DNA of 13,967 nucleotides from Promethearchaeota archaeon (lineage in GTDB: Archaea > Asgardarchaeota > Lokiarchaeia > Sigyniarchaeales > SOKP01): contig SHMW01000097.1 of NCBI GenBank assembly GCA_008080735.1, positions 1 through 13,967 of the forward strand. Reading direction: 5' to 3'. The translations under genes were made by a program, and so were the position numbers. Position 1 is the stretch's first letter; each line of letters opens with the position of its first letter. Shown piece after piece: positions 2,105 through 11,371 of the stretch. A model generated the notes under the pieces. It saw only the letters and a program-made list of their open reading frames with translations, was not told the origin of the DNA and made no database searches.

Positions 2105-2791
2105 ATGAAGAATATGGAAAACCAAGTCAGTAAGACTGGGGAATATGAAATTAATTCTGAGAAAAATGAATTATCAGTATATCTAGAAAAATTTCCCTTT
2201 ATCACCATAATAGGAAAGTATGATCATATTTTAGGTCCAAGCTGTTTATATACACCTGTAGAATATGAGGATGAAGATTTCATCAAAAATTTGCTTCGAG
2301 ATGCTCTTAATACTAAAAATAAATTTGTAATTTTAAATCACGATAAATTTTATTCTCAGACATGTAAAGTAAGAATTAAAGATGAAGATGCACGAGGGAG
2401 AAATCAACTATATGCAATAATATTGCTTAGACATATTGAAAAGCCTTTGATACCTACGGTCCATTTTAAGAAGATAGAAATGCTTTTTCGTAAAGTAGGG
2501 GAAGAGGAGATTTTAAAAAATAATATAACTGTTTTTGAGGAATTTGCCCAACAGATCAGAGAGACCTATTTTAATAAGGATGAATTACTTCCCTTGGAAT
2601 CGTGCAATCTTAAAGTAAGAAGTGGAGTGAATACCATACAAGGTTTTTGTGAATTAATATTGGAAGAGAAAACCAAGAAGAAAAAGTTATCGGATGAGAT
2701 GATTGTAGACTATATCAATTTGATGCTTGATTCTTGTGATGAGATTATTAAAGCTTTGGAGGAAAATCTTCAAGGTTCTTTTCATGGATAA
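2105..2791 (+). CDS. Folliculin/SMCR8/C9orf72-like longin (uDENN) domain protein fused to a degenerate, His-less HisKA (DHp) domain
   Basis: N-terminal IIGKYDHILGP matches the longin beta1-beta2 'F/Y-D-x-x-x-G-P' hairpin, and VRIKDEDARGRNQLYAIILL matches the FLCN/SMCR8 'D-x-x-A-R-G' loop. C-terminal LESCNLKVRSGVNTIQGFCELILEE aligns with LASMSHELRTPLNAIVGFTDLILEE of the kinase ending at 11371. The ORF track starts at TTG 2093; ATG 2105 (or 2114) is more likely. Confidence 0.7.
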   Translation: MKNMENQVSKTGEYEINSEKNELSVYLEKFPFITIIGKYDHILGPSCLYTPVEYEDEDFIKNLLRDALNTKNKFVILNHDKFYSQTCKVRIKDEDARGRNQLYAIILLRHIEKPLIPTVHFKKIEMLFRKVGEEEILKNNITVFEEFAQQIRETYFNKDELLPLESCNLKVRSGVNTIQGFCELILEEKTKKKKLSDEMIVDYINLMLDSCDEIIKALEENLQGSFHG

Positions 2792-2818: not shown

Positions 2819-3700
2819 ATGGATAAAGACAAAAAGATTATTATTTGCGGTCCTCCTAACAGTGGAAAAACCACGATAGTAAACGTATTTTTTAAAAAGG
2901 CAAATCCGCTAAAACTTTTAAAGAATTCTCTTGAGCCAACAAGAGGGATCAATTCTGAGCAATTTTCACTATTCGAGTCTAATTTAGGTATATTTGATTT
3001 GGCTGGACAAGAGAATAAAGATTGGTTTACAAAGGATAAGGATATATTTGAGTACAGTGATATTATATTGTGCGTATTTGATATTAATAATTCCTTGAAA
3101 TCGATCGTCTCTTTTCTTATAAAAATCTTAAGAATTAAGCAGGACACTCATACGCTTTCAGAATGTAAAATCATCACCTTTCTTCATAAGGTCGATCTTG
3201 CTAATCGATCCTATATTTCCCAAAAACATAGAGCAGTTTCAAAATTTTTTGAGAGTCGTTATCCGCATATAGAATTGGATTTTTATTTAACATCTATTAC
3301 CAGACAATACTTTTATAATACATTTAATATTATTTTAGAAATTTTGAATCTACTCTTTCAAAAGGACCTTATTCCAATTAGTCAGAGACAATTCGAATTT
3401 TTAAAAACGGAACTCTACCTTATTTTAAAAATCGATTCAAGTGTAAAATATTCCATAGAAACACTTTCAGAGAAGATTAGATTAAATAAAAACCTATTAA
3501 ACACACATTTAAAGAGATTGGAAAAATTGGGGTTCCTTACATTTCTTAATAATAGAGATGTTGTTTGTTTTACAGAGAGGTGCGGGTTTTTTAAACAAGG
3601 TTTCTTGAAAGAGGTACATAAGATTGAAGAAATAAGTAGAAATAAGGAAACTAAATTGTTTTATACGTTGGGAGAATTGAATAACATTCCAATTGATTAA
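2819..3700 (+). CDS. Rag/Gtr-Arf-like small GTPase with C-terminal winged helix-turn-helix domain
   Basis: G1 GPPNSGKT, G2 EPTRG, G3 DLAGQ, G4 HKVD and G5 LTSI are present (HKxD and TSI are Rag-like). Residues ~195-258, ELYLILKI..YSIETLSEKIRLNKNLLNTHLKRLEKLGFL..VVCFTER, follow a MarR/ArsR-like wHTH pattern. Confidence 0.85.
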   Translation: MDKDKKIIICGPPNSGKTTIVNVFFKKANPLKLLKNSLEPTRGINSEQFSLFESNLGIFDLAGQENKDWFTKDKDIFEYSDIILCVFDINNSLKSIVSFLIKILRIKQDTHTLSECKIITFLHKVDLANRSYISQKHRAVSKFFESRYPHIELDFYLTSITRQYFYNTFNIILEILNLLFQKDLIPISQRQFEFLKTELYLILKIDSSVKYSIETLSEKIRLNKNLLNTHLKRLEKLGFLTFLNNRDVVCFTERCGFFKQGFLKEVHKIEEISRNKETKLFYTLGELNNIPID

Positions 3701-3728
3701 TTATAATAGAGATTGATTGGTGATTGGT

Positions 3729-5753
3729 TTGGAACACAAAGAACAAGACACAAAAAAAAGCAAAAGTCTAAGCAACTGTAATATAGCTCAGAATGAGAAA
3801 TCATCCAAAAAAAAAGGATATAATGCGCAGCTCGAAGCCTTAAATATTCAATATCATCAATTGGTAGCCAATATACCCGGTGCAGTTTTTCAGTTTGGTT
3901 TAGCGGATAAAAATGAAATTTCCATTCAATATATAAGTGAAGGGATCTACGAATTAACTGGACTAACGAGGGATGAATTTGAAGGATCAATTTCACAATT
4001 AATAGATATCATCTATCAGAAAGATTTAAATTCATTTAGAAAATCCCTTGAACATTCTATAGAGAATTCTGAACCTTGGAACATGGAATTCAGAATTATT
4101 ACTAAAAATACCGGAGAAATCAAATGGTTAGACGGTAGGTCAACTTTAAAATTGATAGATGGACGAAGTTACATGTGGTATGGAGTTTTGTTAGATATAA
4201 CTGAGAAGAAGAGTGCGCAAATTAGATTAAAGAAGATAAACGAAAAACTTGAGCAGAAAGTAAAAGAAAGAACACATCATCTCAAGGAACGGGTTAAAGA
4301 AATTAGGTGTCTCTATGATATTTCTAAAATCGTTGAAAATGCAAAATTTAGCTTAGAAGAGACGTTCAAGAGAATTGTTCAGAGGATACCTAAATCAATG
4401 CAATATTCCGATATTAGTTGTTCAAGAATCAAATATAATCAAACAGATTTTTTATCACATAATTTTAAAAATTCTGACTGGAAGATCTCAGTTCCCATTC
4501 AAAATAAAGCAAATATAGGGGAAATCGAAATCTTTTATACAGAGAAGAGACCTCAAGAATCATTTGGTCCGTTTTTAGAGGATGAATTGAAATTATTAGA
4601 GGCCATAAAAGAGATAATAGAGAGATACTTAGAACGAGAAGAGACTAAAAAAGAGCTTTTAAGAAAAAATCATGCAATAAATTCCTCAAAAAGCGCTATC
4701 ACAATCTTGAATATGAAAGGAACAGTTGAATATGTTAATCCAGCATTCTTAAAGATGTGGGGATATGAAGATAAAAAAAGTGTTCTCGCCAGATCTGCGC
4801 TGGAATTTTGGGCAGAGGAAAAAAAGGCTCAAATGATGATCACAAAGATTTTTAGTGAAGGAAAGGCGTCTGGACAGATGGAAGCAAAAAGAAAGGATGG
4901 GTCAAATTTTATTGCAAATGTACAAGGTAAGATAATTCTTAATGAAAAAAATGAGAAAACAGGTATAACTGCTTCTTTTATCGATGTCACGGATACAGTT
5001 AATGCGAAACAAAAATTAGAAAAAAGTATGGAAGAACTCAAAAGGTCTAATCAGGAATTAGAACAGTTCGCATATGTGGCTTCACATGATCTACAAGAAC
5101 CATTAAGAATGGTTTCCAGTTTTACACAATTACTTCAAAAGCGTTATTATGATAAATTAGATGAAGATGCAAATGAATTTATTGAATATGCAGTAGATGG
5201 AGCGAAACGAATGCAGAATCTTATAAATGATCTACTCACTTTTTCAAGAGTGGGGATGAGAGGTACTCCATTCGAACCTATAGATATGAACAAAGTCCTT
5301 TCAAATACCCTTCAAAATCTCAAATTTGTAATAAAAGAAACTGATACTAACATAATCTATGACGAATTACCCATTATTAACGCAGATCGTTCTCAAATAC
5401 AGCAAGTTCTCCAAAATCTTATTTCAAATGCAATAAAATTCCATGGAAAAGAAGCACCAAAAATCCGAATATCCTCCACAGAGGAAGAGTCTAAATGGAT
5501 ATTTTCTGTGAAAGACAATGGTATCGGCATTGATCCCCAATTTTTTAATAAAATATTTGTTATTTTTCAGAGGTTACATAAAAGAGGGGAATATGAAGGG
5601 ACTGGCATTGGACTAGCTCTTTGTAAAAAGATTATTAATAGACATGGGGGGGAGATTTGGGTTGATTCTGAAAGTGGAGAAGGCTCAACCTTTCACTTTT
5701 TTATTCCTAAAAGTAAAATTAAGAAAAATATAAAAATGAGTGATAAAATATGA
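3729..5753 (+). CDS. Cytoplasmic sensor histidine kinase: PAS - GAF-like - PAS - HisKA - HATPase_c (Cph1-like kinase core)
   Basis: H-box FAYVASHDLQEPLR, N-box QNLISNAIKF, G1 DNGIG and G2 GTGIGL are present; the PAS domains end in DITEKK and DVTD. No transmembrane segment is visible. There is no ATG before the first PAS. TTG 3729 follows GGTGAT (3719-3724), so it is preferred over TTG 3717 of the ORF track. Confidence 0.93.
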   Translation: MEHKEQDTKKSKSLSNCNIAQNEKSSKKKGYNAQLEALNIQYHQLVANIPGAVFQFGLADKNEISIQYISEGIYELTGLTRDEFEGSISQLIDIIYQKDLNSFRKSLEHSIENSEPWNMEFRIITKNTGEIKWLDGRSTLKLIDGRSYMWYGVLLDITEKKSAQIRLKKINEKLEQKVKERTHHLKERVKEIRCLYDISKIVENAKFSLEETFKRIVQRIPKSMQYSDISCSRIKYNQTDFLSHNFKNSDWKISVPIQNKANIGEIEIFYTEKRPQESFGPFLEDELKLLEAIKEIIERYLEREETKKELLRKNHAINSSKSAITILNMKGTVEYVNPAFLKMWGYEDKKSVLARSALEFWAEEKKAQMMITKIFSEGKASGQMEAKRKDGSNFIANVQGKIILNEKNEKTGITASFIDVTDTVNAKQKLEKSMEELKRSNQELEQFAYVASHDLQEPLRMVSSFTQLLQKRYYDKLDEDANEFIEYAVDGAKRMQNLINDLLTFSRVGMRGTPFEPIDMNKVLSNTLQNLKFVIKETDTNIIYDELPIINADRSQIQQVLQNLISNAIKFHGKEAPKIRISSTEEESKWIFSVKDNGIGIDPQFFNKIFVIFQRLHKRGEYEGTGIGLALCKKIINRHGGEIWVDSESGEGSTFHFFIPKSKIKKNIKMSDKI

Positions 5754-6200
5754 AAAAGAAAGATAATTGGCAAACCAATAGAGATTCTTCTTGTAGAAGA
5801 TAATCCTGGAGATATAAGATTAACCAAGGAAGCATTGAAGGAGAGTAAAATTTTAAATAATCTCAATATAGTGATGGATGGAGAAGAGGCTATGAAATAT
5901 TTGCTTAATGAAGGTGAGTACGGTGAAAAACCAAAACCAGATATCATACTTCTGGACCTTAATTTACCAAAAAAAGATGGTCGTGAAGTTCTTGCAGACA
6001 TCAAACAAATAAAAGATTTAAGACATATCCCGGTGGTTATTTTAACAAGTTCAGAAGCAGATGAAGATATTATTAAAACCTATGAATTGCATGCTAATTG
6101 TTATGTAACCAAACCAGTTGATCTTGATCAGTTCAGTAAGGTCGTAAAAGCGATTGGAGATTTTTGGTTCAGCATTGTTAAATTACCAAATGAAGATTAA
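5754..6200 (+). CDS. Stand-alone receiver-domain response regulator (Rcp1-like); start codon anomalous
   Basis: The open frame from 5754 reads [20 protein letters not shown]...[12 protein letters not shown]...VILTSS...YVTKPV...FWFSIVKLP, with all receiver residues intact. The ORF-track start TTG 5835 cuts off the acidic pocket. The obvious ATG (5750) is out of frame by one base. Confidence 0.88.
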
Positions 6201-6234
6201 ACAAGCTTATTCAACCAAGCTAGGTGAGTTAGAG

Positions 6235-8505
6235 ATGAAAGATAAAGTAAGAGACATAATAGACATCTTATTAATTGAAGATAATATAGCAGATGTCAAA
6301 TTGCTGGAGGTTTTATTATCAGAAAATATAAATGTAGATTTTCAATATAAATTACACATAGCAAATACTCTAAAAGAAGGATTTAAATTATTGGAACAGA
6401 ACTCATTTGATGTTATTCTTTTAGATTTATCACTGCCAGATAGTAATGGTTTTAAAACTATTTCAACAGTTTATGAAGAGATAACCGAGATTCCTATCAT
6501 TGTCTTAACGGGTTTGGATGATATAAAGGGAGGGAGAAAAGCAGTCAAGCTGGGGGCTCAAGATTTTTTAATAAAAGGTAAAGTTGATGGAAATCATTTA
6601 GTACAGTCAATCTATCATTCTATCGAACGACATAAGATGATAAAAACTATTGAGGACCTTGCAAATGATTTGCAAAAAGAAGAACATAAACTGAGAAAAA
6701 TTATCAATGCTAATGCTGATGCGATAATAATTACATCAAAGAATGGAAAAGTTCAATTTATTAACCCTGCTGCTGAAGAATTATTTGAATGTAAAAGCAC
6801 TTCATTTAAAGGGGAAGAATTTGGATATGACATTAGCGAGAATGGAGGAAAAGAGATTTGTATCCAAAATTCCACTACGAAATATGCTGAAGTGAAACAA
6901 GTGGATATAGAGTGGGAAGGAAAGCACGCGAAACTCCTCACTCTCAGAGATATTACTAAAAATAAGCAATATGAGAAACTATTAAAAAAATCTGAAAGGA
7001 AATATCGTAATTTATTTGAAAATTCGCCATATCCTATTTTAATAATGGATTCTAGCGGAAAAATCGTAGATTGCAATTCTAATGTGTTAGAATTATTCGA
7101 AATTAATAAAGAAGAATTTATATCGGGAAATTATAAGGATGAGTTTCTTAAACCACTTAATGAGAGTAATCTTTTCTCTGAGAATTTAGAAGAATTAGAT
7201 CAGAATAACCTTCCCGATTCCTATGAGATGGAAATTAGAGTTTCTGAAAATAAAAAGTTATGGTTGGATCTCAATTTCTCATTCATATACTTAAATAATA
7301 CCCCATTAATTCATCTCTTAATCCGGAATATTACGCCGATTAAGCAATCTGAGAGAGAAATGCGAAAGTTAGAAAACACTCTCCACGAGATGAATTTGCT
7401 TATTGAACATGCTCCTATGGCCATTTTTTTAATATATAAGAATGGAAAGATTTTAAGAGCTAATAAGGCAGCGTTAGATTTATTTCAATACAGAGAAGAA
7501 AGTTTGTTAAATTCTAGGGTATATGACCTATTTGATTCGAAATATCAAAAGCTAATAAAAAGTCATTATCGGAAAGATGTATTCCATTCCGATTTGGAAA
7601 ATCAAATTGAAGCCCGAATAATAAGGAAGGACGGAAGGGTCAAGGATGTTGAAATTACATCAACTACCTTAAAGATTGCTGGTAATGTGATAATCCAATC
7701 TTTTATTTCAGATATAAGCTCTCGTAAAAATTATGAGAAAAATAGAGAATTACTGTTAGATCAACTAATCCAATCCTTAGAGTTTAAATCTAAATTTTTA
7801 GCGGCAATGTCCCATGATCTAAGAACCCCTCTCAATGCGATTATAGGGTTTTCGGGCTTATTATTAGATGAGTCCTATGGTAAGTTAAATGAAAGTCAAG
7901 AGGATTACTTAAATGATATTTACAGTGCTGCTGACCAATTAAGTGATTTGATAAATGCAATGCTCGACATTTCAAAAATTGAAATTGGAGGATTTGATTT
8001 AAAAAAGAAGGAATTCGATTTATATCCATTAGTAAAACAAATCCATTCGTTGTTTAAACCCCTCTATAAAAAAAAGGAGTTATCATTTCAAATTAAAAAT
8101 CTAAATAAAGCCAAATACATCTATGCAGATCCTGTAAGATTTAAGCAAATATTATATAATCTTATAGACAATGCTATAAAATATACAGAAGAAGGGGGAA
8201 TCATTTTAAGAATATTCGAACATCTTGAACACTGGGAGTTCCAAATAGAAGATACGGGGATTGGAATTGAAGAAAAGGATTATGAAGTTGTATTTAGAGA
8301 ATTTGGTAGAATAAAAAATGATGTGAAAAAGGAAGTCTCAGGTTCGGGAATAGGTCTATCCTTAACAAAACGTCTTGTCAAACTACATGGAGGGGAAATA
8401 TGGTTTGAAAGCGAGAAAGATAAAGGAACTACATTTTTCTTCACATTACCAAAAAGTAAGGAGGTTAGAAATAATGCAAATATCAAAACAAAATCAGAAA
8501 TTTAA
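6235..8505 (+). CDS. Hybrid kinase: REC - PAS - PAS - PAS - HisKA - HATPase_c
   Basis: The receiver is intact (LLIEDN, LLDLSLPD, VLTG, FLIK). Three PAS repeats end in DITK, NITP and DISS. The kinase core has H-box MSHDLRTPLN, NLIDNAIKY, DTGIG and GSGIGL. ATG 6235 is preceded by AGGTGA (6222-6227) and is preferred over the overlapping 6154 start. Confidence 0.93.
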   Translation: MKDKVRDIIDILLIEDNIADVKLLEVLLSENINVDFQYKLHIANTLKEGFKLLEQNSFDVILLDLSLPDSNGFKTISTVYEEITEIPIIVLTGLDDIKGGRKAVKLGAQDFLIKGKVDGNHLVQSIYHSIERHKMIKTIEDLANDLQKEEHKLRKIINANADAIIITSKNGKVQFINPAAEELFECKSTSFKGEEFGYDISENGGKEICIQNSTTKYAEVKQVDIEWEGKHAKLLTLRDITKNKQYEKLLKKSERKYRNLFENSPYPILIMDSSGKIVDCNSNVLELFEINKEEFISGNYKDEFLKPLNESNLFSENLEELDQNNLPDSYEMEIRVSENKKLWLDLNFSFIYLNNTPLIHLLIRNITPIKQSEREMRKLENTLHEMNLLIEHAPMAIFLIYKNGKILRANKAALDLFQYREESLLNSRVYDLFDSKYQKLIKSHYRKDVFHSDLENQIEARIIRKDGRVKDVEITSTTLKIAGNVIIQSFISDISSRKNYEKNRELLLDQLIQSLEFKSKFLAAMSHDLRTPLNAIIGFSGLLLDESYGKLNESQEDYLNDIYSAADQLSDLINAMLDISKIEIGGFDLKKKEFDLYPLVKQIHSLFKPLYKKKELSFQIKNLNKAKYIYADPVRFKQILYNLIDNAIKYTEEGGIILRIFEHLEHWEFQIEDTGIGIEEKDYEVVFREFGRIKNDVKKEVSGSGIGLSLTKRLVKLHGGEIWFESEKDKGTTFFFTLPKSKEVRNNANIKTKSEI

Positions 8506-11371
8506 TCTTTTATTTATATATAGCAAATATGAGAATTTAGAAATCTTAGCAAAAAGTTTGAAAGAGTTAGAAGCTTTTAACTATAATTTCATCTTAAATA
8601 AAAGAAAAATAGACTCAGTGAAAGGAATTAATCTCGCTAATTTTGATATCTGTATCTATAGCGACTTTCAGCTTGAATTATCTCAACTTCACAAATATTT
8701 TGAAAATATTAGGAACTTAAAGCAGAAATCTGTTATCTTTATAGGGAAACCCCAAGCCATTGAGAATTTAAACAAGATTTTTAGATTAGGGGTCAATTAT
8801 TATTTGGAACAAGATATATCAATTAATAGTCTATGTAAAGCAATTCTAAATTGCATACAATCTCCTAATCTAAAAAAAAGGACTAAAAAATTGGAGTTCT
8901 CTCAAGAAAAATTTAGAAGTCTTTTCGATAATTTAAACGATTCGGTAATTTTCCACGATCTAAAAGGAGATATAATCGAAGTTAATGATACGGCATGTAA
9001 AAGATTAAACTATACGCACGAGGATTTAAAAACAAAGAACCTTGTTTCAATAGATAGTCCCAAATTTAGAAAGTTTATTAAAGATCGAATTGAAGAATTG
9101 AAAAAGAAAGGAAATATCATATTTGAGTCAGAACATTTAACTAAAGGAGGAAAAGTTATCCCAGTAGAAATTAGTACCACTTTAGTTTCTTACGAGGGAA
9201 AAGAGGCTATACTTAGTATCGCTAGAGATATTTCCTTGAGGAAGAAGAAGAAGAAAAAGTACCAAAGAACCTTACAAAAATATAAACAACTTCATAAAGA
9301 GATGGAATTAATCCTTGATCACATCCCAGGTCTTGTTTACCATAAAGATACAGAAAACAACTTTTTAAGAGTTAATAAAAATTTAGCAGAAGTACATGGG
9401 ATGAGCAAGGAAGAAATGTCCGGAAAAAGTTGTTTTGAGATATTTCCAGAAGAACAAGCTCAAGCATATTGGGAAGACGATCTAGATGTTATTAAATCCG
9501 GAAAGCCCAAACTTTTTATTGAAGAAAAATGGCAAACTCCAGAGGGTTTACGCTGGACAAGCACTAGTAAAGTCCCGCTCAGAGATGAGGAGGGAACGAT
9601 TAAAGGAATTATAGGGTTTTCTATTGATTTAACAGAGAAGAAATTAATCGAAAAAGAACTTATTAAGTCTCAGAGAGAACTCAAAGTACGGAATAAAATA
9701 TCAAATCTTTTTCTAAGATATCAAGATGAAAAACTATACAATAAAATCTTAGATTACTTGCTTGAGATGTTTGAATCAAAGATTGGATATTTCAGTTATA
9801 TTAATAGTAAAGGAGATTTAGTATGTCCCACCATGAAAGGAGGTATATGGGAAAGATGTAGTGTAGTGGATAAAGATTTTATTTTCCCTAAGGATTCCTG
9901 GGCTGGATTATGGGGTCGATCATTAGAAGAGAGTAAAATTTTAACCTCTGAGGGCCCTTTTAATTTACCTCAAGGACATATCAAATTAAAAAATGTAGTC
10001 TGTATTCCCATTATATTCCAAAACGAAATTATTGGTCAAATTACTTTAGGAAATAAAAATAGCGGCTATGATAAAAAAAATATCAACTTGTTAAAAACCA
10101 TCTCAAACAAAATTGCCCCGATCTTGGATTTACGATTAAAAAGAAAACAGCAAGAAAGGAAAAAACAAAAAATTCAAGAAAAATTAAGAGAATCAGAAAA
10201 AAAATATCGTAGTGTCTTGGAGAATATAAAGGAGGGCTATTTTGAAATAGATTTAGATGGTAATTTCACTTTTTTTAACAATGCATTAACCAAAATTCTT
10301 GGATTGCAGGATAAGGAAATAAGAGGTAATAATTTAACTGATTATATAGATCAAAAGACAGAAATGCGCTTATCAAAAGAGTTTAAGAAGATCTTAAATA
10401 CAAAAAAAGGAAAAAAAAATATTCAGTTTAAACTAAAAAAAAACAATGAGGAGGAAATGTATCTTGAGACATCTGCTTATCCCCTATATAATTCCGATGA
10501 TAAAATGATTGGATTTTTTGGTTTATCTCGTGATATTACGGAGCGCAAGAGGGCGGAGCTAATCCAGAAAGAATTTCAAAATGAATTAGAACGGAAAGTG
10601 GATGAACGCACGAAAAAATTGAATCAAGCACTTCAAAAACAAAAACATTATTTAGACCATATTCTTAAAGCTTCACAATTTAAATCAGAATTTCTAGCGT
10701 CTATGTCTCATGAATTAAGAACCCCTCTGAATGCAATTGTTGGATTCACCGATTTAATATTAGAAGAATCTTTTGGAAAGCTTAATGAAAAGCAAAAAGA
10801 CTTTCTAAGCGATGTGAAGAGTTCTTCGCAGGATTTGCTTAATATGATTAATCAAGTATTAGATATATCAAAAATCGAAGCGGGTCAGCTCAACTTAGAC
10901 ATAAAAAGCTTTTCTCTTACTAACATGGTCAACCAAATTGATTCTACATTACGAGCATCTCTTAATGAAAAAAAACTTCAATTTATCACGAAAGGGTTAG
11001 ATAATATAAGCGATTTTAAAGCCGATCCGATTAAGTTTAAAGAAATTCTTACCAATTTACTAACTAATGCAATAAAATATACATTAAAAGGGAAAATTGA
11101 GTTAATTGCTGAAGATTCTGGAAAGAATTGGCTGTTTAAAATCTCTGATACAGGTATAGGTATAGAAAAGGAAGATTACAATATCATATTTAAAGAATTC
11201 AAAAGAGGGAACTCTCCTCTTATCAATTCAAAGAGAGGTACAGGACTCGGTTTACCTTTAACAAAAAGATTGGTAAATTTACATGGAGGAGAGATTTGGT
11301 TTAGAAGTAAAAAAGGAGAAGGAACAATTTTTTTCTTTACAATACCTAAAATGAAGATTAAACGTAATTAA
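8474..11371 (+). CDS. Histidine kinase: pseudo-receiver - PAS - PAS - GAF - PAS - HisKA - HATPase_c
   Basis: The kinase core has H-box MSHELRTPLN, NLLTNAIKY, DTGIG and GTGLGL. PAS domains end in DISLRK, DLTEKK and DITERK. A GAF region ends in VCIPIIFQNEIIGQITLGNK. ATG 8474 is preceded by GGAGGT (8460-8465) and is preferred over 8375. Confidence 0.92.
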   Translation: MQISKQNQKFNLLFIYSKYENLEILAKSLKELEAFNYNFILNKRKIDSVKGINLANFDICIYSDFQLELSQLHKYFENIRNLKQKSVIFIGKPQAIENLNKIFRLGVNYYLEQDISINSLCKAILNCIQSPNLKKRTKKLEFSQEKFRSLFDNLNDSVIFHDLKGDIIEVNDTACKRLNYTHEDLKTKNLVSIDSPKFRKFIKDRIEELKKKGNIIFESEHLTKGGKVIPVEISTTLVSYEGKEAILSIARDISLRKKKKKKYQRTLQKYKQLHKEMELILDHIPGLVYHKDTENNFLRVNKNLAEVHGMSKEEMSGKSCFEIFPEEQAQAYWEDDLDVIKSGKPKLFIEEKWQTPEGLRWTSTSKVPLRDEEGTIKGIIGFSIDLTEKKLIEKELIKSQRELKVRNKISNLFLRYQDEKLYNKILDYLLEMFESKIGYFSYINSKGDLVCPTMKGGIWERCSVVDKDFIFPKDSWAGLWGRSLEESKILTSEGPFNLPQGHIKLKNVVCIPIIFQNEIIGQITLGNKNSGYDKKNINLLKTISNKIAPILDLRLKRKQQERKKQKIQEKLRESEKKYRSVLENIKEGYFEIDLDGNFTFFNNALTKILGLQDKEIRGNNLTDYIDQKTEMRLSKEFKKILNTKKGKKNIQFKLKKNNEEEMYLETSAYPLYNSDDKMIGFFGLSRDITERKRAELIQKEFQNELERKVDERTKKLNQALQKQKHYLDHILKASQFKSEFLASMSHELRTPLNAIVGFTDLILEESFGKLNEKQKDFLSDVKSSSQDLLNMINQVLDISKIEAGQLNLDIKSFSLTNMVNQIDSTLRASLNEKKLQFITKGLDNISDFKADPIKFKEILTNLLTNAIKYTLKGKIELIAEDSGKNWLFKISDTGIGIEKEDYNIIFKEFKRGNSPLINSKRGTGLGLPLTKRLVNLHGGEIWFRSKKGEGTIFFFTIPKMKIKRN

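Follow-up and report, generated by a model that had tools for sequence, protein, structure and literature searches.

Introduction

Why should a longin protein end in a histidine kinase hairpin from which the phospho-acceptor histidine is missing? The question is raised by the longin-pseudoDHp gene at positions 2105-2791 (forward strand) of contig SHMW01000097.1 (assembly GCA_008080735.1), from a Promethearchaeota archaeon of the class Lokiarchaeia. The whole stretch of DNA analysed, 13,967 nucleotides long, is referred to here as the window. An initial annotation, made from the sequence, had seen in the C-terminal part of the gene product, P0001, a counterpart of the dimerisation and histidine phosphotransfer (DHp) domain of the HisKA family with Leu in place of His, and had proposed that it serves as a docking or dimerisation module. 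Our analysis confirmed the observation and supported the interpretation in part. We are highly confident that P0001 belongs to a family in which a eukaryote-type longin domain of the FLCN/SMCR8/NPRL2 class, a kind known from regulators of Rag/Arf GTPases, is fused to a HisKA-derived DHp hairpin, with no ATPase domain, and whose core clade has no His at the phosphorylation site.

Asgard archaea are rich in small GTPases and in regulators of the longin or roadblock kind. In the cultured Lokiarchaeon, GTPase genes are generally not found in operons with regulators, and their partners are therefore hard to predict (PMC10933270). Asgard longins with a Gly-Pro (GP) motif and an arginine finger have been described, and Rag- or Arf-related GTPases have been suggested as their partners (Traffic 2025, PMC12290439). 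Archaeal two-component signalling is viewed as operating mostly by protein-protein contacts (PMC5847659), a view with which the family described here is consistent. Through this fusion, two-component signals may be tied to a small GTPase. The family offers a longin of the GTPase-activating protein (GAP) type whose gene forms a conserved pair with that of a single, specific Rag-like GTPase, and a covalent link between a longin and a two-component module.

Results

The C-terminal hairpin and its relation to HisKA

P0001 has 228 residues when read from the ATG at 2105, as in the open reading frame (ORF) list and its translation; TTG 2093 and ATG 2114 are other possible starts, and the closest homologue begins at the equivalent of 2114. 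Its tail is predicted to form an antiparallel two-helix hairpin. In the AlphaFold2 (AF2) model of the whole protein (pLDDT 79.8), helix 1 covers residues 158-192 (2576-2680, forward strand) and includes a degenerate H-box, NLKVRSGVNTIQGFCELIL, located by hhalign and PDB profile alignments, while helix 2 covers residues 197-226 (2693-2782, forward strand) and can be aligned to the second helix both of HK853 and of the kinases encoded nearby. When the hairpin was modelled on its own (pLDDT 88.6), the helices lay at fragment residues 8-37 and 42-71, and the six best Foldseek matches were all the DHp domain of HK853, with TM scores of 0.68-0.70 and root-mean-square deviations (rmsd) of 1.7-2.3 Å. 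HK853 was the best match of the hairpin both in structure and among PDB sequences. Matches of the whole model to LOV-histidine-kinase chimeras (E ~1e-3) were discounted, their TM score being ~0.2 and their rmsd ~25 Å. The initial annotation, which had placed the segment at 2594-2770, was right about the gene, the peptide and the codon; Pro163 begins at 2591, three bases before that start, and residue 222 ends at 2770.

Sequence comparisons point the same way. The Pfam HisKA family (PF00512) was the top match for residues 150-228, with an E value of 0.018 and 15.5 bits, below the curated cut-off of 26.9 bits; the Pfam search recommended by the initial annotation thus returned the expected family at a score under its limit, and one deep relative, P0146, passes it with 27.1 bits. 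HisKA was also the top family for 31 of 40 homologous tails (best E 2.8e-4). Taken as single comparisons, BLASTP alignments of the hairpin with the DHp domains of two kinases encoded downstream gave E values of 5e-6 (kinase 2) and 8e-6 (kinase 3), so that the resemblance to the third kinase noted at the outset is above chance. A diverse family profile made from 12 tails (A4) found histidine kinases as its two best matches among PDB sequences, 4jas (a variant of HK853, E 0.0069) and 7n0e (E 0.019), and six of its ten matches were kinases with both helices aligned and Leu169 placed on His260. Compared by hhalign with 11 real DHp domains drawn from the window and related loci, the same profile gave a probability of 96.1% and an E value of 3.5e-9 over 56 columns. 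Furthermore, a phmmer search with P0001 alone against 1.8 billion representatives reached the metagenomic protein P0141 at E 4e-8, which by Pfam consists of six tandem HisKA repeats (1.6e-37). As a lead only, ESM Atlas features of residues 150-228 fell in HisKA clusters for 25 of 30 named matches. An iterated HisKA profile built from the kinases of this genome missed P0001 at E 1e-3, giving 11.5 bits over residues 176-217, and the full-length profiles A1 and A3 found chance-level matches in the PDB, neither longin nor kinase.

No HATPase_c domain follows the hairpin, as the initial annotation had said: the ORF stops at 2789-2791, two residues beyond helix 2, the next gene (2819-3700) encodes a GTPase, and a Pfam scan found none. 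Judged from its sequence P0001 cannot autophosphorylate, because it has no catalytic and ATP-binding (CA) domain. Nor does it qualify as a His phosphotransferase of the Spo0B/ChpT type, its site having no His; the relatives P0144 and P0146, which have the His and an adjacent receiver gene, could by their sequences fit that type. Together, this evidence makes a HisKA origin of the hairpin very probable. We did not file P0001 as a functional member of HisKA because it falls below the curated score and has neither the His nor a CA domain, and the hairpin is best called a HisKA-derived pseudo-DHp.

The histidine column and the family

Leu169 (CTT, 2609-2611, forward strand) occupies the phospho-acceptor His column in every alignment and in the same register, in agreement with the initial annotation. 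Over 181 aligned sequences, which include some duplicates, this column contains Leu in 139, Met in 18, Ile in 6, Val in 1, Lys in 1 and His in 11. A sequencing error in P0001 was ruled out because the column is conserved across the family, and so was a pseudogene. Homologues number more than 280, with lengths of 213-232 residues, and all the named ones come from Lokiarchaeota/Promethearchaeota metagenomes. A search through 400 genomes of the phylum turned up full-length copies solely in the order to which the window belongs, and mostly in its own family; outside that order the matches were to the longin half alone or to real kinases.

The question posed by the initial annotation, whether homologues keep the His, has two answers: the core clade does not, and seven distinct relatives, deep or sporadic in their placement, do (P0144, P0129, P0145, P0130, P0059, P0140 and P0146). 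These have H-box-like motifs such as SHHVR, SHKIR, EHKAR and EHKR. In the family tree, which also contains P0145, a near-copy of P0129, the His-bearing P0144, P0129, P0130 and P0059 lie outside a core clade of 47 rows (SH-aLRT 83). A word-index search with P0129 returned only P0129 itself and one close relative. Loss of the His in the core clade would be the simplest reading of this distribution, because the hairpin domain derives from HisKA. The ancestor would then have been a longin-HisKA protein with the His, of which forms would survive in the deep branches, beside receiver genes.

The most conserved part of the tail is the H-box stretch, Arg172, Ser173, Gly174, Asn176, Thr177, Ile178, Gln179, Gly180, Phe181 and Cys182. 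Ser173, at the position His+4, is nearly invariant. Core-clade members have Lys or Gln directly after the His column, where HisKA domains have an acidic residue. Two Cys residues, Cys182 in the motif GFC (2648-2650, forward strand) and Cys211 in the motif DSC (2735-2737, forward strand), the latter in helix 2 and roughly level with Cys182, do not vary within the core clade and occur in P0129 and P0130 as well; they are absent from P0144, P0146 and ordinary HisKA domains. The four Cys of a dimer could form a metal or redox site.

Three combinations of functional residues were seen in the family, in a reciprocal pattern. In P0144 and P0146 the H-box His and the Arg-Gly of the longin domain are both present. 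P0129 and P0130 keep the His, lack the longin Arg (GIEG and NEKD in its place) and have no GTPase neighbour. The core clade keeps the longin Arg, lacks the His and is paired with a GTPase that has a winged helix-turn-helix (wHTH) tail. A further metagenomic protein, P0132 (196 aa), joins an N-terminus like that of a membrane protein to the family tail, which is 52% identical to P0001 over residues 143-225 of the latter; either the fusion is genuine or it is a chimera of assembly or gene calling. Single internal stops were found in two matches to the family gene (TAA in L023 and TGA in G282:C241), and in some genomes, such as at L027 (596-1491, reverse strand), the orthologue of the GTPase-wHTH gene is broken into two ORFs; these are probably assembly errors or decaying copies.

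The longin half

The AF2 model shows an alpha/beta domain at residues 22-137, within which AF2 and Foldseek place the longin domain, of the FLCN/NPRL2/SMCR8 'GAP-longin' type, at residues 29-137 (2189-2515, forward strand). The top Foldseek matches of the whole model were NPRL2/NPRL3 chains of GATOR1 (E 3e-4), and others, with E values up to 6e-3, included chains of the FLCN complex and the Lokiarchaeota longin 8yqg; Sec22b was matched as well. The Pfam Folliculin family gave a sub-threshold match to P0001 (E 0.0019), and a phmmer search with the longin part against the PDB gave zero matches. Between longin strands 1 and 2, in the sequence YDHILGP, lies the GP motif Gly44-Pro45 (2234-2239, forward strand), which aligns with that of other Asgard longins, including Folliculin-type ones above the Pfam cut-off. 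Arg97 (CGA, 2393-2395, forward strand) lies in an ARG loop, and its Arg-Gly pair is aligned in seven of eight diverse Asgard longins. Both Gly44-Pro45 and Arg97-Gly98 are invariant in 40 homologues. By its fold and GP motif, this half of the protein agrees with the FLCN/SMCR8-type class of Asgard longins, and Arg97 is a candidate arginine finger, a putative counterpart of Arg164 in FLCN, Arg78 in NPRL2 and Arg147 in SMCR8. The direct fusion of a HisKA-type hairpin to a longin, which the initial annotation had stressed, thus stands.

Longins with the GP and Arg-Gly motifs occur in other fusions in the phylum as well: longin-PAS-PAS (~430 aa), longin-Ras-like GTPase (417 aa) and PAS-longin-hairpin (~390 aa), the last with a degenerate H-box. 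They are represented by L041 (962-2263), L042 (610-1893), L043 (903-2153) and L047 (686-1858), all on the reverse strand, and by the proteins P0131 and P0136.

The GTPase gene downstream

The most constant neighbour of the longin-pseudoDHp gene, absent from the initial annotation, is a GTPase-wHTH gene and not a kinase gene. In the window it occupies 2819-3700 on the forward strand, 27 nt downstream, and encodes a Rag/Arf-like GTPase (Pfam Gtr1_RagA, 2.3e-15) with a C-terminal winged-helix tail that gives weak matches to MarR and HTH_24. Of 29 other genomes, 18 have an orthologue as the next gene downstream, in the same orientation (phmmer E 1e-26 to 1e-100). The aligned orthologues (A6), from 14 genomes and with 40-54% identity, always come right after the longin-pseudoDHp gene. 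A second type of GTPase is often encoded divergently upstream of the family gene in the 29 genomes, and two further Rag/Arf-like GTPases are encoded on the opposite strand of the window. A GTPase joined to a possible DNA-binding domain is unusual.

The longin domain probably has the GTPase-wHTH protein as its partner. When two P0001 copies were modelled in a complex with the GTPase-wHTH, scored for the GTPase partner only, the model reached 0.36, against 0.00 for the best control, with contact agreement between runs of at least 69% and partner pLDDT of at least 79. Among 80 solved complexes 58 attain this mark, as do 2 among 110 mismatched pairs; at scores of 0.60 or under, it is attained by just 7 of the 80 solved complexes and by both of the mismatches that pass. 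The model may thus raise the odds of GTPase binding, slightly. A GAP activity of the longin on a Rag/Arf GTPase is suggested only by the operon link and by this weak complex score.

Two-component genes around the family and the rest of the window

The window has a G+C content of ~30% and contains a run of co-oriented genes, which encode in order an amidohydrolase-like protein, the longin-pseudoDHp protein, the GTPase-wHTH, a PAS kinase, a receiver, a REC-PAS kinase and a PAS-GAF-PAS kinase. The domains of the last four were assigned with Pfam. The PAS histidine kinase gene lies at 3717-5753 and the receiver (REC) frame at 5754-6200. Kinase 2 (6154-8505, forward strand) has the order REC-PAS-HisKA-HATPase and kinase 3 (8375-11371, forward strand) the order PAS-GAF-PAS-HisKA-HATPase; both have an RTPLN-type H-box and are candidate docking partners of the hairpin. 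The receiver has no start in its own frame: a full REC domain follows the kinase TGA (5751-5753) in the same frame (window 5736-5835), and the coupled ATG at 5750, in an ATGA overlap, is one base out of the receiver frame across a run of five A. The break near 5750 looks like a one-base homopolymer assembly error or a real frameshift.

In other genomes, kinase or receiver genes were found within 1.5 kb of the family gene in ~14 of 29, and in all four loci examined over a wider range, which include core-clade and His-bearing members. REC-PAS kinases and receivers surround P0129 and P0130, and a stand-alone receiver gene directly follows each of P0144 and P0146, with Rag-like GTPases flanking. 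Five other genomes have a kinase stretch that matches the family profile less than 4 kb from the family gene.

The initial annotation had named the two RTPLN-type kinases of the window as possible partners, and their DHp domains are the closest in this genome. It encodes at least 22 HisKA kinases, and family profiles restricted to the tail gave kinases 2 and 3 the top two ranks among 22 DHp domains, with 19.6 and 15.5 bits for the core-clade profile and 27.5 and 27.1 bits for the diverse one. The phylogeny that it had called for places the family on the RTPLN-type side in a tree of DHp domains only (83 columns), and is poorly resolved. Naming a donor kinase from this tree was given up, the resolution being too poor.

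Discussion

Proposed role and its alternatives

The explanation that we favour joins the HisKA-derived identity of the hairpin, descent from a His-bearing longin-HisKA ancestor and a proposed role in coupling the state of a phosphorelay to a small-GTPase switch; taken as a whole, we consider it on balance probable. For the mechanism itself, a dimerisation and docking module with a longin acting on a GTPase, we make a tentative proposal whose chances we put a little short of even. The hairpin, no longer phosphorylatable, would have become a module for dimerisation and docking. Two chains would pair as a four-helix bundle in the manner of DHp domains, and this pairing would also join two longin domains into a GTPase platform. 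The strongly conserved face of the H-box might dock either a receiver domain or, in the adjoining kinases, the DHp of RTPLN type, and the longin would act in a GAP-like way on the downstream GTPase-winged-helix protein. The result would be a coupling of the state of the neighbouring phosphorelay to the small-GTPase switch.

Several results weigh against this account. P0001 itself lies under the Pfam cut-off (15.5 against 26.9 bits). The narrow core-clade hairpin profile (A2) gave 54% and E 1.2e-4 in hhalign and found seven weak matches among PDB sequences, none of them a kinase. The Foldseek E values of the hairpin were 0.18 or worse, which is not significant, and designed helical hairpins were matched too; non-significant values are expected because the hairpin has only 70 residues. 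The family tree is unrooted and has long deep branches, and the view that the His is ancestral and was then lost follows from the HisKA origin rather than from the tree. The GTPase was not seen directly downstream in 11 of the 29 genomes, where a kinase or receiver follows in five, the contig ends in two and none of these was recognised in four. Finally, the complex result is weak, and such a score would mislead more often than not, except where the pairing already had good odds.

The alternative that survives best, unlikely as it seems to us, is that the hairpin is purely a dimeriser. Its homodimer would give the longins the two-fold platform that eukaryotic longins acting as GAPs or as guanine nucleotide exchange factors (GEFs) get from heterodimers; contact with two-component proteins would be gone, and the nearby kinases would be a historical leftover. 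The loss of the His, the constancy of the GTPase rather than a kinase as neighbour, the four loci of 29 in which no kinase, receiver or GTPase was detected directly downstream, and the fact that longin and roadblock regulators act as dimers (PMC10933270) all agree with it. However, the H-box is conserved beyond what the packing of a core needs, with Arg172, Asn176, Thr177, Gln179, Gly180 and Phe181 invariant or almost so, kinase or receiver genes lie close by in about half of the loci and in all four wide ones, and the adjacent kinases are the nearest in sequence.

That last point might instead indicate that the protein inhibits or modulates these kinases, forming mixed four-helix bundles with kinases 2 and 3 that block or redirect their autophosphorylation. 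RetS-GacS is a precedent for the modulation of a kinase by heterodimerisation. Of the 22 DHp domains, those of the two adjacent kinases resemble the hairpin most, profile-matching kinase stretches lie near the family gene in five other genomes, and the family sits, weakly resolved, on the RTPLN-type side of the DHp tree. Nevertheless, this similarity may reflect common descent alone, the identity is ~30%, and the change of Pro to Gly and the two family-specific Cys speak against mixed bundles; we regard this explanation as quite improbable.

Slightly less probable still is a His-independent receiver phosphatase or a sensor of phosphorylated receivers, in which the CA-less hairpin would bind or dephosphorylate receivers, as the isolated EnvZ DHp dephosphorylates receivers and DivL senses phosphorylated DivK. 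The phosphatase activity of HisKA domains uses Thr or Asn at His+4. Ser173 is nearly invariant at that position in the family, stand-alone receivers are encoded nearby, and DivL is a precedent for a repurposed pseudo-kinase (PMC4211667). The core clade has Lys or Gln where an acidic residue should follow the His, which counts against this activity, and the proposal overlaps with the coupling explanation rather than excluding it. That the hairpin is a generic, coiled-coil-like tail whose likeness to HisKA arose by chance or convergence is disfavoured and would be very surprising, since the sub-threshold Pfam and PDB scores of P0001 and its core-clade profile and the non-significant Foldseek values, which designed hairpins equal, are outweighed by the 96% hhalign match in one register over both helices, the histidine kinases at the top of the PDB profile search, the passage of P0146 over the Pfam cut-off, the His of deep relatives in the exact column, the transitive link through P0141 and the constant genomic link to two-component genes.

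Within the coupling explanation a bolder version can be formulated, which we hold to be doubtful: the family would be the coupler of an unrecognised Asgard pathway running from a PAS-kinase/receiver relay through the His-less DHp and an FLCN-type longin GAP to a Rag-like GTPase with a winged-helix DNA-binding tail. The relay would dock on the DHp face and so control the attached longin, by which the nucleotide state of the GTPase would be set. If this were true, a prokaryotic two-component input would be wired to a longin-Rag switch of eukaryote type, from which GATOR/folliculin-Rag nutrient signalling might have arisen. The passage from phosphotransfer to docking would then have left intermediates with both His and Arg (P0144 and P0146) and with His only (P0129 and P0130), in addition to the Arg-only core clade. 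Such natural variants, with or without the His and with or without the Arg, open both the direction of evolution and the mechanism to bench tests.

Comparison with known systems

No description of a longin-HisKA fusion, or of longin together with Asgard and histidine kinase, was found in the full-text literature, a search whose coverage left out most subscription journals, and the fusion of a longin to a His-less DHp is apparently undescribed before. A close counterpart is the HisKA DHp domain of class I histidine kinases, as seen in Thermotoga HK853. The two share a two-helix hairpin of the same length, with the second helix aligned, and the H-box pattern R-[ST]-x-[LIV]-N-x-I-x-G-F-x-x-L-[IL]-L, which is kept in P0001. 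They differ in that P0001 has Leu for His, Lys or Gln for the following acidic residue in its family and Gly for a conserved Pro, as well as two family-specific invariant Cys, no HATPase_c domain and a score under the Pfam cut-off. The metagenomic protein P0141 (556 aa) resembles P0001 in having HisKA hairpins with a hydrophobic residue for the His (Phe, in SFNLRT and SFKLRT) and no CA domain; unlike P0001 it has no longin, and it consists of six repeats behind a hydrophobic N-terminus rich in Gly and Ala.

Among reduced kinase modules, DivL of Caulobacter is comparable: it is a kinase module without a phosphorylatable His, reused as a protein-binding sensor of the state of a response regulator (PMC4211667). 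DivL is, however, a large bacterial protein with multiple PAS domains and a CA domain, whereas here a DHp alone is fused to a longin in an archaeon. In Lokiarchaeum GC14_75, HisKA domains without a catalytic ATPase domain occur in RHH-HisKA-REC proteins (Galperin et al. 2018, PMC5847659). These are similar as new fusions, in Lokiarchaeota, of a HisKA domain deprived of its ATPase; their partners are a DNA-binding RHH domain and a receiver, and neither loss of the His nor a longin is mentioned there (PMC5847659). With the present family comes a clear example, from the archaea, of how a kinase domain can be pared down to a pseudo-domain.

On the longin side, P0001 shares with the Asgard FLCN/SMCR8-type longins its fold, the GP motif Gly44-Pro45 and the loop with the invariant Arg-Gly (PMC12290439). 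A HisKA/DHp tail or a link to two-component systems is not mentioned in that work, whose emphasis lies on Heimdallarchaeia, whereas full-length members of the P0001 family were found only in the order of the window.

A functional parallel is provided by Myxococcus. There, the receiver-domain protein RomR is, with RomX, part of the GEF of MglA. In the same system the small Ras-like GTPase MglA is regulated by MglB, a dimer of roadblock/longin fold (PMC10933270). MglA-MglB and RomR-RomX are thus a precedent for two-component-type domains feeding a switch made of a longin/roadblock regulator and a GTPase. In Myxococcus these parts are separate and a DHp is absent, while in the family of P0001 a DHp remnant and a longin are joined in one chain. 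The family represents a new domain architecture whose parts were already known; it is conserved and under selection, and its intermediates in nature are informative.

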